Shown here piece after piece: positions 33,524 through 38,560 of a stretch of DNA of 64,000 bases; within the stretch, counting starts at the first letter, position 1, and the number at the start of each line of letters is the position of its first letter. The position numbers were made by a program, and so were the translations under genes. The stretch is taken from positions 212,919 to 276,918 of the forward strand of contig JBLYPW010000001.1 in the NCBI GenBank assembly GCA_048538275.1. Direction: 5' to 3'. The stretch comes from Candidatus Komeilibacteria bacterium. GTDB lineage: Bacteria; Patescibacteriota; Patescibacteriia; UBA1558. The notes under the pieces were generated by a model. It saw only the letters and a list, made by a program, of their open reading frames with translations. It did not search any database and was not told the origin of the DNA.

Positions 33524-33985
33524 ATGGAAAAATCATTGATTATATTAAAACCCGATTGCCTACAACGTAATTTATTGGGAGAAATTATTAAACGTTTTGA
33601 AAACAAGGGTTTGAAAATAGCAGCACTAAAAATGGGAAAAATTTCAGATGAACAGATTGATGAACATTATAGCCATCACAAAGATAAGCCATTCTTTGCC
33701 GGGCTTAAAGGTTTTATGCAATCCGGGCCAGTAGTATTTATGGTGGTAGAGGGGTATGAAGCGGTTAGTTCTGTTCGTACCATTGTAGGGCCAACAGTAG
33801 GTAGAAAAGCTGATGCCGGATCTGTTCGGGGTGATTTTTCTATGAGCCATTCTAATAATATTGTACACGCCTCTGATTCATTAGAAACTGCAGAGGTAGA
33901 GATTAAACGATTTTTCCAGGCAGATGAAGTTTTTGATTATTATAAAGATGATTGGAAATGGGTTTATGCTGATGATGAACAATAG
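33524..33985 (+). CDS. ndk: nucleoside diphosphate kinase
   Basis: NDK fold: ..LIILKPD.., GSVRGDF, NIVHASDS. Confidence 0.9.
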   Translation: MEKSLIILKPDCLQRNLLGEIIKRFENKGLKIAALKMGKISDEQIDEHYSHHKDKPFFAGLKGFMQSGPVVFMVVEGYEAVSSVRTIVGPTVGRKADAGSVRGDFSMSHSNNIVHASDSLETAEVEIKRFFQADEVFDYYKDDWKWVYADDEQ

Positions 33986-34007: not shown

Positions 34008-34036
34008 GGTCGCTGGACATGTCAGCGACCTTTTGT
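34008..34036 (+). terminator. rho-independent terminator after ndk
   Basis: ggtcgctggacatgtcagcgacc hairpin followed by ttttgtt. Confidence 0.6.
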
Positions 34037-34258
34037 TATCCTAAAATAAAGATAAAAGTTATGTCCTATTTTTATTCCCAAATTATTAGCAAGATTGTTC
34101 GCAACTTTATGTTGTGGGTCTTGGTTTTGGGAAAAAATAGCGGCAGCTAACTTTTATTAGGAAAATATAGTAGAGAATATTAGTTAGCCCGCTGGCTAAT
34201 TTTTTTATTCTGCTACTTTGGTTAGTTCTTTTCAAATCAAACAGCATTGGGAGGTACC

Positions 34259-34534
34259 ATGCAGGACACACATAATGGTCCAGGTTATTTTTTAAGCGAT
34301 GCAGAATATCATCGTTTGGCTCTGCAGGCCATACAAGCTCAGCGGGATGAGCTGGTATGGAAGTATGGCGAGGATAAAATCCAAGCTGATCCGGTTTTAC
34401 GATTGCAGTATCAGGAATTTGAATCCTTGATTGAGCAACATGCGGACAGCGTAGCAACGCCAAGGGGTCAGAGCGGGTCGTCGGCGACTTTGTCATCAGA
34501 AATTGATAATCGTTTAGTTTTTGGGAGGTTTTAA
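34259..34534 (+). CDS. small hypothetical protein (first gene of a coupled two-gene operon)
   Basis: GGAGG RBS 5 nt upstream of the ATG; its stop abuts the ATG of the next ORF; local GC is higher than the flanks. Confidence 0.45.
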   Translation: MQDTHNGPGYFLSDAEYHRLALQAIQAQRDELVWKYGEDKIQADPVLRLQYQEFESLIEQHADSVATPRGQSGSSATLSSEIDNRLVFGRF

Positions 34535-34801
34535 ATGTCAGCGGAAACTGGTTTTGCCATTGTGACAGATAGTTCTGTTGCTAAACAGGAACAATCAACT
34601 AGTGTATTGCGGTTCATTATTTTATCTGAATTAAATAAAATAGAGCATGAATTACGCCAGTTGAAAGACTCAGGAGCAAGTAAGTGTTGTCCAGCCCGTA
34701 AAGAACTGATTCGTAACAAACGTCGTTTGGAAAGCCAGCTACGGCAACAAAAAATCCACGATGCTAATAAGAAATTCAGGCAGGAACCATATTTTGCCTA
34801 A
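34535..34801 (+). CDS. small coiled-coil protein (possibly DUF465/YdcH-like)
   Basis: ..IEHELRQLKDSGAS....KELIRNKRRLESQLRQQK.. pattern; translationally coupled to the upstream ORF. Confidence 0.4.
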   Translation: MSAETGFAIVTDSSVAKQEQSTSVLRFIILSELNKIEHELRQLKDSGASKCCPARKELIRNKRRLESQLRQQKIHDANKKFRQEPYFA

Positions 34802-34818
34802 TTTCAGCTTCAATATTA

Positions 34819-34848
34819 GCCATCTTGTAAAACAAGGTGGCTTTTTTG
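34819..34848 (+). terminator. rho-independent terminator
   Basis: gccatcttg-taaaa-caaggtggc hairpin followed by tttttt. Confidence 0.55.
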
Positions 34849-34877
34849 TTGACCCCAATTTTGTCATTTGTTATAAT
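34849..34877 (+). promoter_or_regulatory. consensus sigma70 promoter (TTGACC-N17-TATAAT)
   Basis: Read directly from the sequence. It drives a region with no conserved CDS. Confidence 0.55.
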
Positions 34878-34885
34878 ATAAATGT

Positions 34886-35140
34886 TCTAATCATGCCGAT
34901 AGATTGAATTTCTACAACCTTTATTTTTAGGGAGTTTGCGTGGATTCAGGTCGTGGTCTGAATTCTAGGACACCCAGCGGCAAAAGTTATGCGTCTTTTG
35001 AGCAAATCGGTTTATACCAATTTTCGTCAAGAGTGCTTAACTGCCCGGATGTTGCAGAAGGACTTCCAATGCGTATCGGTATGATTAGGACGATAAAGAA
35101 TCTCTGTTTATGGGCAGGGATTTTTTATTTGTCAGTAATT
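34886..35140 (+). ncRNA. candidate small RNA, or mRNA for a 74-aa GTG-initiated peptide with a C-terminal TM (34940-35164)
   Basis: A strong promoter directly upstream. An AGGGAG RBS sits 5 nt upstream of the GTG. Internal hairpin ggattcag..ctgaattc. There is no match to tmRNA, RNase P or SRP consensus motifs by eye. Confidence 0.25.
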
Positions 35141-35336
35141 GATTTTTTTGTTATACCGTGGTAATTTATATCTGTTAGAATTATTTTTTTGATGCGGTTT
35201 TATCAGTAAAATTCTACTTGAATAAACTTGATCCTAGAGGTATAAGTGTGTGAGGGAGAGGAACAAGCGCGGTGAGTAGAGTAGAGTAGCTATGACTGGT
35301 TTATAGCTATAAAATGACGAGCCGCGATGACGACGA

Positions 35337-35413
35337 CGGGGTGTAGCGCAGTTGGCTAGCGCGTACGCATGGGGTGCGTGAGGTCGCGGGTTCGAGTCCC
35401 GCCACCCCGACCA
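35337..35413 (+). tRNA. tRNA-Pro (anticodon GGG)
   Basis: Manual cloverleaf: acceptor cggggtg/caccccg, anticodon loop atGGGgt, T arm gcggg-ttcgagt-cccgc, encoded CCA. Confidence 0.8.
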
Positions 35414-35732
35414 GATTAAACTTTTTTCAAAATCAGAGGCGTTTTGTTGCTCGTTCGCCGCGTTTCCGTCCCGCCTGCGCGGGGCTTCGTTCGCATTTTT
35501 CTCTATATTAAGGTTAAAGCTTTGAAATTTTTGCAGATCAAATGAAGCTGTATTTAAATAAGAGGATAAGGCAGTTAATACCATTATTACTTATCTGCAG
35601 GCCAAGCAAATCAAGAGTCAAAACGAGTGATATGTTATAATACTTATATGAATGTTACAATGCTGTATTGGTAAATTTTTATCAAATTTATATTTGTATC
35701 ATTTGCATTGTTAAATTATTAATTACTAATAT

Positions 35733-36128
35733 ATGTCCAAAAAGAAAAATAAAGCTTGGATATGGTGGACCATTGCCATCATTATCGCGATTGGCATCAT
35801 TGTTTATGTGGTCAAGGCAAATCAACAACCGGGTGAGCTGGATGAGTTTGCTCAGTGTATTGATAGCAGTGGCGCTACTTTTTATGGCGCTTTCTGGTGC
35901 CCACATTGTCAGAATCAAAAAAAAGACTTTGGTAGCTCAGCTAAGTATCTGCCTTATATAGAATGTTCTACTCCGGACGGTAAGGGTCAAAAGCAAATTT
36001 GTGATGACGCTGGCATTACTGGGTATCCTACTTGGGAATTTGCCGATGGCAGTCGTCTTAATGGCGAGGTGGCTTTACAAACTCTAGCCGATAAAACCGG
36101 CTGCTCTTTACCAATTAATCAATTATAA
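35733..36128 (+). CDS. membrane-anchored thioredoxin-fold protein (WCPHC active site)
   Basis: N-terminal TM and a CxxC motif, WCPHCQ; adjacent to a DsbB-family gene. Confidence 0.75.
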   Translation: MSKKKNKAWIWWTIAIIIAIGIIVYVVKANQQPGELDEFAQCIDSSGATFYGAFWCPHCQNQKKDFGSSAKYLPYIECSTPDGKGQKQICDDAGITGYPTWEFADGSRLNGEVALQTLADKTGCSLPINQL

Positions 36129-36132
36129 TAAT

Positions 36133-36696
36133 ATGGGAAATTTTAGTCATTATTTTACTTTAGTTTTAGCTTGGGGTACGCTTTTGTTGGATATTGGTAT
36201 AGTAGTTTTATTATTGTGGTGGTTGCTTCAGTTTTTACGTAAGCGACAGCATAAGAATTTGTTGTGTGTTCATAGCTGGCAATGGCTCTCGGCGCATGCT
36301 GGAAAATTAGCTTGGGCATTGGCGGTGTTGGCGACAGCCGGTAGCTTGACCTATTCTGGCATTATTGGTTTTGAACCGTGTCGGCTGTGTTGGTGGCAAA
36401 GAATATTTATGTATCCGCAGGTTATTTTATTATGGTCTGCCTGGCGTGGAAAATTAGCCAATTTGCGATGGTATAGTTTATTGATGGTGGTGATCGGCGC
36501 TGCTATTGCTAAGTACCATTATATTATGCAGCTGGGGTGGGTGAATGCTGGCTCTTGCGATGCGCTTGGTTATTCATCCGCTTGTTCTCAGCGCTTTGTT
36601 TTAAATTTTGGTTATATCACCATACCCATGATGGCAGCTACGGTTTTTGCTGGTATTGCGATTTTGTTGTTAATTAATTGGTGGGAGAATAGATAA
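36133..36696 (+). CDS. disulfide bond formation protein B (DsbB/BdbC family)
   Basis: Four-TM topology, CRLCWWQRIFMYP motif and a second Cys pair (CDALGYSSAC). Confidence 0.75.
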   Translation: MGNFSHYFTLVLAWGTLLLDIGIVVLLLWWLLQFLRKRQHKNLLCVHSWQWLSAHAGKLAWALAVLATAGSLTYSGIIGFEPCRLCWWQRIFMYPQVILLWSAWRGKLANLRWYSLLMVVIGAAIAKYHYIMQLGWVNAGSCDALGYSSACSQRFVLNFGYITIPMMAATVFAGIAILLLINWWENR

Positions 36697-37951: not shown

Positions 37952-38560
37952 ATGATAAACAAAGGAGCTAAATCAATCATATTTATTTTCGCGGCTTTGC
38001 TTTTGTTGACACCTTTGGCTAGCCAAGCTTTTAGTTGGCATTGGTGGTGGCAGGATGATAGCGAGCCTGTTGTATCGACTCCAGCTCAGCTGACCATGAT
38101 GCAAAAAAATCAAGTCCAGGTTAAGTATGATGCTTGGAATAATGCTTGGCAGAAAAAAGACATTTCTTTGCTATTGCAACAGCCAGAGAATTTACAATGG
38201 AGCGGAGAGGAATTGAATTATATTATTACACAGGCGATCGCGGATGATGAGAATATTCCGGTGCATGATGTACAGATTGCTTTGGCTGATAGGGAAGTGA
38301 CTATTACCGGCACTATACTCAAACCTTTAAGCGGAGATTTTGAATTGGTAGTGCGTCCAGTTTCTTTGGGCAGTGAGTTATATTTTTATGTAGCCAAAGT
38401 TCGTTTCAAAGGTTTTTATTTTCCTAAATTTATCGCCAGTCGTTTGCTGGATAGTTATCTTGAGCCGGTATTGCAATGGCTTTATACAGCGCCTAATTAT
38501 GACACGATAGATTTGCTTAGCAGCGATGATGGCTTGAGCTTATCTTACACTTATCAATAA
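37952..38560 (+). CDS. secreted hypothetical protein
   Basis: Signal peptide; ORF only. Confidence 0.4.
   Translation: MINKGAKSIIFIFAALLLLTPLASQAFSWHWWWQDDSEPVVSTPAQLTMMQKNQVQVKYDAWNNAWQKKDISLLLQQPENLQWSGEELNYIITQAIADDENIPVHDVQIALADREVTITGTILKPLSGDFELVVRPVSLGSELYFYVAKVRFKGFYFPKFIASRLLDSYLEPVLQWLYTAPNYDTIDLLSSDDGLSLSYTYQ

Follow-up and report, generated by a model that had tools for sequence, protein, structure and literature searches.

6S RNA, a bacterial regulator that mimics an open promoter and thereby binds RNA polymerase, is itself well known and is described in two papers as present in almost all bacteria (PMC8998176; PMC8414754). Truncated 6S-1 RNAs of 78–82 nucleotides (nt) still complete the cycle in vitro (PMC8876501), and a phylum-specific RNA of 6S shape, Ms1, has been described from Actinobacteria (PMC9130861). 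In the literature on Patescibacteria and the candidate phyla radiation, searched as full text, no paper describing a 6S RNA or an RNA of such kind was found. The window analyzed here is a stretch of 64,000 nt from a Candidatus Komeilibacteria bacterium (assembly GCA_048538275.1, contig JBLYPW010000001.1, positions 212,919–276,918), an affiliation with which the similarity of its ndk agrees. Downstream of ndk, the nucleoside diphosphate kinase gene, it contains a strong promoter followed by a segment that is almost certainly a structured non-coding RNA gene. Many Patescibacteria carry a member of the same RNA family on the 3′ side of ndk, and the window has its long variant. Judged by architecture and a weak sequence signature, the family is probably (about 0.68) a miniaturized, divergent 6S RNA, the equivalent of ssrS. 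The RNA gene comprises the following elements, all on the + strand.

34849–34877, +, sigma-70-type promoter: TTGACC, 17 nt, TG-n-TATAAT, with 11 of 12 consensus positions and the TG extension
34884–35091, +, RNA body of 208 nt, its 5′ end placed from the promoter
34884–34901, +, 5′ strand of the closing stem P1, 18 base pairs (bp) with 35074–35091
34902–34913, +, 5′ strand of the bubble-proximal ("downstream") helix, GAUUGAA..UCU, pairing with GGA..UUCCAAU at 35060–35071
34914–34929, +, 5′ strand of the central bubble, ACAACCUUUAUUUUUA, unpaired in the consensus
34930–34975, +, terminal arm: P2, formed by GGGAGUUU and AGGACACCC with an A.A mismatch, enclosing hairpin P3 at 34942–34965
34977–35046, +, P4, an irregular 70-nt hairpin in the 3′ bubble strand, present in the long form only
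35047–35059, +, rest of the 3′ bubble strand, variable in sequence and unpaired in the conservative consensus
35074–35091, +, 3′ strand of P1, partner of 34884–34901
35092–35134 (end approximate), +, intrinsic terminator, a 17-bp hairpin followed by a U run

The RNA gene is single-copy in the window and, in the two closest Komeilibacteria representatives (L001 and L002), the element lies directly after ndk. Folding of 34884–35200 gave a stability well beyond that of shuffled sequences (z = −5.3). For comparative analysis, 14 long-form copies were assembled, namely, the window, L001, L002, ten metagenome copies, and one copy found with nhmmer. The metagenome copies were obtained with a pattern of three conserved motifs, which yielded 13 matches, of which 10 were kept and 3 were chance matches in coding DNA; a pattern scan of viral contigs returned a single chance match, also in coding DNA. 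The closing duplex between the 5′ and 3′ ends was present in all 14 copies, at −19.5 to −27 kcal/mol and with differing sequences. In the core alignment of the 14 copies, 89.1% of the cells were paired compared with 74.5% in shuffles (none of 500 as high), 32 pairs varied on both sides, and slid controls were only 29–54% paired. The covarying elements are the closing stem and three helices. The bubble-proximal helix was mostly invariant across the long form, with one G-C/A-U exchange. P3 covaried at nine of its ten pairs, and all 21 pairs of P4 varied on both sides across the homologs; the counterpart of P4 in the short form described below is missing or reduced to 5–7 bp. Constraining the window RNA to the consensus gave −67.0 kcal/mol as against −69.9 kcal/mol for the minimum-energy fold, i.e., a cost of ∼3 kcal/mol. 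RNAalifold added a weakly supported CA-CC/GG-UG helix at 35047–35059. The sequence-only reading of this DNA had offered a non-coding RNA as one of two options for the segment, and a conserved structured RNA with covarying helices is what the homologs display.

The TTGACC-N17-TATAAT promoter at 34849–34877, already proposed from the letters, was recovered as the best site in a 3-kb region with its 11 of 12 consensus matches; promoter-like sites in that region as a whole were at chance level (10 found, 9.7 expected). Across the family, an equivalent sigma-70-like promoter was present at the right distance 5′ of 45 of 50 members, compared with 49 of 300 random positions, and a crude scan placed a terminator after 36 of the 50. 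The RNA gene comes with a promoter, covarying helices, a terminator, and kept synteny with ndk.

The spread of the family was counted over 80 ndk loci of Patescibacteria species representatives, using a covariance model of the long form (R1) and one of the short form (R2). R1 retrieved three more long or intermediate copies together with ∼20 weak matches in diverse Patescibacteria, nearly all of them on the ndk strand and just 3′ of ndk. R2 found 36 of the 80 loci at E < 0.01, and the union of the two models covered at least 42 of the 80, always on the + strand downstream of ndk. The members include Komeilibacteria, Kerfeldbacteria, Vogelbacteria, Terrybacteria, Azambacteria, Niyogibacteria, and many "Paceibacterota" genomes. 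The short form, of ∼120–130 nt, consists of a promoter, a closing stem, GAUUA-UCUAG-AUCAAAU, GGGAKYY-[hairpin]-RRMACCC-A-CCURG-loop-CYRGG, the closing stem again, and usually a terminator. An alignment of 34 short-form sequences was 91.4% paired as against 68.9% in shuffles, with a covariation score of 0.588 as against 0.191, and its P2 showed three invariant G-C pairs, four covarying pairs, and 97% pairing. GGGA and ACCCAC-U were invariant in 21 short-form sequences. When the short form is drawn as a rod, ∼23 bp close it, 17–18 nt on the 5′ side and 13–14 nt on the 3′ side make up the bubble, and the arm measures ∼17 bp. Cross-matches of the models link the two forms: R2 found long forms at 28–40 bits, and R1 found short forms at 25–33 bits.

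The identity of the family was approached with Rfam. At the gathering score, the whole window gave four tRNAs and no other match, and E-value mode was without a relevant match in the window (1.75 kb scanned), in the long-form loci (21 kb), and in the short-form loci (58 kb). Narrow scans (∼150 nt) of two members from different clades gave RF00013 (6S/SsrS) as the only or the best family: L034 scored 20.7 bits (E = 0.012) over model positions 1–187, spanning exactly the RNA, and L042 scored 18.6 bits (E = 0.035). In both alignments, the invariant GGGA.../...ACCCAC-CU falls on the upper-case consensus positions GGGagccc...gggcaCCCACCUgg of 6S RNA, and the helices and bubble strands are collinear with those of 6S. 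The downstream helix, the 5′ strand of the central bubble, and the terminal arm of the short form align with their 6S counterparts. The window copy reads GGGAG...ACACCCAG, with one difference from the signature. In most short-form sequences, two pairings are open to the 3′ strand of the proximal helix, one with its 5′ partner and one with the 3′ bubble strand. The mean duplex energy of the 5′/3′ pairing is −7.1 kcal/mol for native pairs vs. −4.5 kcal/mol for non-native pairs, and that of the mid/3′ pairing is −7.8 vs. −6.2 kcal/mol. In the long form, the complementarity GGGAGUU/AACUUCC is invariant. The family is read as a divergent 6S RNA because of this 6S architecture, the potential dual pairing of the release type, and the appearance of RF00013 as the only or best match in narrow scans. 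By analogy with 6S RNA, a function of the 6S type appears reasonably probable; within it, binding of RNA polymerase and synthesis of product RNA (pRNA) by the family would be expected, and the 5′ bubble strand at 34914–34929 would be the region of the pRNA start site.

Several observations weigh against this assignment. The scores of L034 and L042 are less than half the RF00013 gathering score of 46.4 bits, and therefore RF00013 in its curated form does not include the family. The sequence-only reading had suggested a covariance scan of the segment; such a scan recognized no family, and the window RNA gave no 6S match at E ≤ 10 even when a 256-nt piece was scanned. A comparison of R2 with the E. 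coli ssrS locus, with filters off, returned nothing on the gene (one bona fide 6S RNA was tried). In roughly one of every two minimum-energy folds of the short form, the 3′ bubble strand is closed into a hairpin and the bubble becomes a three-way junction. When the 5′ strand was blocked in silico, the GGGAGUU/AACUUCC helix appeared in 4 of the 14 long forms, 3 of which already had it in the free fold. We know of no described precedent for a 70-nt insertion in the sigma-contacting bubble strand.

How the family may depart from known 6S RNA can be put in two ways, neither of which we would favor beyond a tentative suggestion. It may be a natural mini-6S RNA of ∼125 nt without the long arm that mimics the −35 region, to which the Komeilibacteria type adds a covarying 70-nt insert in the bubble, or it may be the RNA of an undescribed phylum-wide ribonucleoprotein that converged on the 6S shape.

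A rather unlikely alternative, though the likeliest of those weighed, is that the family represents a new class of structured housekeeping or regulatory RNA resembling 6S in shape only, for example, the RNA subunit or sponge of a Patescibacterial protein, or a scaffold presenting a conserved single strand for base pairing (short form GRUCAAAU, long form UCUACAAYC). The sub-threshold level of every Rfam score, the missing reciprocal match to E. coli ssrS, and the silence of the literature noted above agree with such a class, as do a conserved core that consists of the junction and P2 with arms of 5 to 35 bp, and the many minimum-energy folds in which a three-way junction leaves a single long, conserved stretch unpaired. 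Against it stands the coincidence of the invariant nucleotides with the most conserved positions of 6S RNA, in the same order and structural context and in two clades. The potential dual pairing of the 3′ strand fits the 6S release mechanism, and no partner protein gene was found to be consistently linked to the RNA. Other identities were also considered. For signal recognition particle RNA, RNase P RNA, transfer-messenger RNA, 5S rRNA, and Y RNA, and likewise for cobalamin and ZTP riboswitches, the T-box, and self-cleaving ribozymes, the conserved motifs did not fit and no Rfam match was obtained. The GAUCAAA of the short form is complementary to the 5′ end of 16S rRNA (UUUGAUC); the idea of a U3-like role was dropped because the long form does not keep this complementarity.

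The RNA is most likely transcribed as a stand-alone gene from the TTGACC-17-TGnTATAAT promoter. Under the divergent-6S assignment, a mechanism can be proposed by analogy with 6S RNA. Its closing rod (P1 and the bubble-proximal helix), open center, and P2–P3 arm would mimic an open promoter, and this mimic would sequester the sigma-70-type RNA polymerase holoenzyme. With the 5′ bubble strand and then the 5′ side of the proximal helix as template, the polymerase would make a short pRNA, whose synthesis would unzip the proximal helix; the freed 3′ strand would form an alternative hairpin, leading to release of the enzyme. For the short form, this hairpin could arise by pairing of the freed strand with the 3′ bubble strand, to which it is complementary, like the E. 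coli-type release hairpin. For the long form, GGGAGUU/AACUUCC could act like the "central bubble collapse helix" of B. subtilis.

The RNA gene is set among the following features, whose order and positions (the terminator of ndk, a pair of small open reading frames (ORFs) with a terminator, the promoter, a GTG-initiated ORF, and tRNA-Pro) had been read correctly from the sequence alone.

33524–33985, +, ndk, nucleoside diphosphate kinase (Pfam NDK, 3e-51), the syntenic anchor of the RNA family
34008–34036, +, ndk intrinsic terminator: hairpin 34008–34030 with a 9-bp stem containing six GC pairs, followed by a T run
34037–34848, +, lineage-specific insert in the spacer between ndk and the RNA gene, holding two ORFan genes and their terminator
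34259–34534, +, ORF1, 91 amino acids (aa), ORFan; ribosome-binding site GGGAGG at 34249–34254; codon score 0.330 bits/codon
34535–34801, +, ORF2, 88 aa, ORFan; GGGAGG at 34523–34528; codon score 0.246 bits/codon
34818–34848, +, intrinsic terminator of the ORF1–ORF2 operon: hairpin 34818–34842 with an 11-bp stem, followed by TTTTTTG
34940–35164, +, 74-aa GTG ORF, a spurious chance frame over the RNA gene and its terminator, judged by stops in homologs and codon score
35337–35413, +, tRNA-Pro(GGG), found 3′ of the RNA gene in 5 of 14 long-form loci

ORF1 and ORF2 are adjacent, with the stop of ORF1 abutting the start of ORF2 (TAAATG) and GGGAGG placed 4–6 nt before each start. Both are probably real genes, since their codon usage lies in the range of true genes (minimum 0.182 bits/codon; wrong-frame maximum 0.033) and every other reading frame scores negative. 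The raised GC content that had been attributed to the pair is an overstatement: the peak of ORF1 (0.457) is ordinary for genes in the window (0.40–0.49) and looks raised because the intergenic flanks are AT-rich (0.33–0.38). Among 5.8e9 proteins, each ORF matched only itself, and a HMMER search of ORF1 against 1.84e9 representatives gave nothing past one marginal partial match. Neither blastn nor tblastn matched either of them to any of the 94 fetched loci or to the rest of the window, and no Pfam, PHROG, or PADLOC family was matched. Residues 46–86 of ORF1 resembled TIGR02574, "addiction module component" of NCBIfam, at E = 0.014 and 15.3 bits, below the cut-off of 31.9. The AlphaFold2 (AF2) models predicted a two-helix hairpin for ORF1 (helices 14–43 and 45–66; predicted local distance difference test (pLDDT) score 72) and for ORF2 (helices 14–45 and 53–82; pLDDT 81). 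Foldseek returned no match to ORF1 at E < 1 and none to ORF2 at E < 0.7, and the folds are generic. A 15-nt inverted repeat, 93% complementary, was observed between the 3′ end of ORF2 (34745–34759) and the 3′ half of the operon terminator (34837–34851); it may compete with the terminator hairpin as another fold, or it may have arisen by chance.

In the closest relatives (L002, L001, and L088), the spacer between ndk and the RNA gene is only 75–208 nt long and lacks ORF1–ORF2; across lineages, its length ranges from 75 nt to more than 2 kb. The intervals compared were 34037–34848 in the window, 3027–4048 in L086, 574–2197 in L084, 1393–3541 in L092, and 6460–8250 in L065. Other cargo of the spacer comprised a 107-aa ORF, a 432-aa protein with weak N-terminal matches to HTH_29, HTH_32, and HTH_28, and an M20/M42 peptidase; in some cases there was no long ORF. 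The spacer appears to be a hot spot for insertions that accumulates lineage-specific ORFan genes, and, on comparison of these loci, the ORF1–ORF2 pair is best described as a lineage-specific insertion in a variable spacer, unrelated to the RNA gene.

The sequence-only reading had likened the arrangement to a small toxin–antitoxin-like or regulatory cassette on an island next to tRNA-Pro. The island stands only in the weak sense that a lineage-specific segment separates ndk from the RNA gene; no integrase, tRNA-derived direct repeat, or att-like repeat accompanies it. No copy of either half of tRNA-Pro was found elsewhere in the window with up to three mismatches allowed, and no significant repeats flank the insert. 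An island targeted to a tRNA was rejected, with no integrase and no repeat of a tRNA 3′ end, and with the insert lying 5′ of the RNA gene and not beside the tRNA. That ORF1–ORF2 is a toxin–antitoxin, addiction, or defense cassette gained as a mobile island is improbable. Two small coupled genes with strong ribosome-binding sites and a terminator of their own, missing from the closest relatives, are what such a cassette would look like, and the sub-cut-off TIGR02574 match of ORF1 points the same way. The pair is nevertheless without a homolog in the protein collections or a family match, does not recur in the 94 loci, is predicted to form plain helical hairpins with no structural neighbor below E = 0.7, shows host-like codon usage, and has neither integrase, flanking repeats, nor tRNA fragment; as ORFans with generic folds, ORF1 and ORF2 do not bear out the claim of a cassette.

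The region 3′ of the RNA gene differs among lineages. The sequence-only reading had asked for a check of whether related genomes have the segment at the tRNA-Pro locus; in relatives the RNA is present 3′ of ndk, and tRNA-Pro comes next in 5 of the 14 long-form loci. The leader of tRNA-Pro in the window contains, as read from the sequence, a promoter-like TTGAAT-17-TATAAG (35218–35246) and (GAGTA)x3 at 35274–35288, the latter being the repeats that had been noticed in front of the tRNA. Just 3′ of tRNA-Pro, a GC-rich stretch (35440–35495; GC 0.52) showed no significant fold (z = 0.67) and no match among related loci. In L002, an intact tRNA-Pro(GGG) (1651–1727) lies between its own 5′ fragment and 3′ fragment (1518–1531 and 1918–1936), each adjoining GC-rich unrelated DNA; this resembles insertion scars, and the window is without such fragments. 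A second extended −10 element, TGTTATAAT, is present at 35634–35642 of the window, in a context nearly identical to that of the RNA-gene promoter, 5′ of a gene for a membrane-anchored thioredoxin-like protein that forms a pair with a DsbB-like gene (35733–36696) after the RNA gene and tRNA-Pro. The same pair, recognized by N-terminal sequence similarity, lies 3′ of the RNA in L086 (4363–5317). Also syntenic downstream of the RNA is a secreted protein (∼200 aa) that is conserved, belongs to no Pfam family, and has an FSW..WW motif following its signal peptide (window 37952–38560; L001 6895–7485; L002 2068–2673; L088 174–779, − strand; L092 3845–4435). In several loci of the Paceibacteria type, the short-form RNA is followed by a 460–480-aa protein resembling the beta-CASP/RMMBL RNA nuclease of L045 (L045 3716–5116, L038 6726–8123, L042 1291–2700, L053 6752–8137, and others; the Pfam basis is L045 only), in some of them with a small membrane protein in between. 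As the nuclease has a promoter of its own, its linkage to the RNA may be synteny only.

This variety bears on the possibility that the RNA is a cis-acting leader, a riboswitch-like attenuator of read-through into tRNA-Pro or other downstream genes. The terminator directly after the structured domain, the alternative pairings, and the loci in which tRNA-Pro(GGG) is next would suit a leader. It is very improbable all the same, as the downstream genes vary by lineage (tRNA-Pro, secreted protein, thioredoxin/DsbB pair, ABC transporter, beta-CASP nuclease), the downstream units of the window appear to have their own promoters (the elements at 35218–35246 and 35634–35642), and a closing stem of 12–20 bp (∼−20 kcal/mol) with a separate terminator typifies stable RNA genes and not the P1 of an aptamer.

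The segment had also been read as encoding a type-I-toxin-like peptide, a 74-aa product initiated at GTG behind an AGGGAG ribosome-binding site and ending in a transmembrane helix. The ORF exists in the window. In the aligned frame, stops interrupt 12 of 13 homologs, and 8 of the 13, the one stop-free homolog among them, have no start codon at the GTG position. Its codon score of 0.010 bits/codon falls within the wrong-frame range, the AGGGAG forms one side (5′) of P2, a covarying helix, and the hydrophobic C-terminus results from reading the terminator hairpin and U run as codons. No family matched it in Pfam, NCBIfam, PHROG, or PADLOC. The ORF is taken as spurious because of the stops and missing starts in homologs, the wrong-frame codon usage, and the tail read from the terminator, and as a conserved gene it is refuted by these sequence comparisons. 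Nor do relatives keep the segment within a longer coding sequence, which had been named as a sign of a frameshifted pseudogene. Likeness to type I toxin–antitoxin loci is superficial and confined to the window sequence (strong promoter, short ORF, hydrophobic C-terminus), whereas the ORF is not conserved, lies inside covarying helices, uses wrong-frame codons, and has no antisense partner that was found. That the promoter drives a membrane peptide of this kind is hardly credible when the ORF, the upstream AGGGAG, and the hydrophobic end occur together in the window alone and each has another explanation or is broken in homologs.

To judge from the literature that could be searched, no Patescibacterial form has been described that is missed by the Rfam model, can be as small as ∼125 nt, keeps synteny with ndk, and in one lineage has a large insertion in its bubble. 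If the 6S assignment holds, ultra-small, host-dependent bacteria would keep a global brake on RNA polymerase, and the short forms would be natural examples of a minimal 6S architecture whose activity has so far been demonstrated in laboratory truncations alone. Under the tentative mini-6S reading, the insert in the bubble strand that normally contacts sigma would imply a changed recognition by the polymerase or the recruitment of a second factor. The Rfam model misses the family at its threshold; the ndk-linked position together with the R1 and R2 models offers a simple route for annotation across Patescibacteria, and annotating the RNA gene helps to avoid false calls of small ORFs or "toxins" across it.

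Like described 6S RNAs, the RNA of the family comes from a small gene that stands alone, between a strong sigma-70-type promoter and a terminator. It shares with E. coli 6S and B. subtilis 6S-1 a closing/downstream helix, a large central bubble, and a terminal stem, supported here by covariation, and, as in 6S RNA, G-C pairs flank the bubble, with GGG.../...CCCAC-CU on the side of the terminal stem. The 3′ strand of the downstream helix of the short form could re-pair with the 3′ bubble strand as in 6S RNA of the E. coli type. Differences are seen in size, the short form having ∼120–130 nt compared with the ∼160–200 nt described for 6S RNA and much shorter closing and terminal arms, and in the 70-nt hairpin that the long form of the window carries in its 3′ bubble strand. 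The neighbors of E. coli ssrS are zapA and fau, whereas the neighbor of the family is ndk, and E. coli 6S is without the GGG/CCCACC signature that the family carries. Ms1 RNA offers a precedent: the 6S covariance model does not detect it, and synteny led to its discovery. It is ∼300 nt long and binds the RNA polymerase core instead of the holoenzyme (PMC9130861), and no relation in sequence to the family was seen. The engineered minimal 6S-1 RNAs have the same architecture as the natural short form; they are laboratory truncations with ∼10-fold lower affinity (PMC8876501), and the family would be their natural, conserved equivalent.

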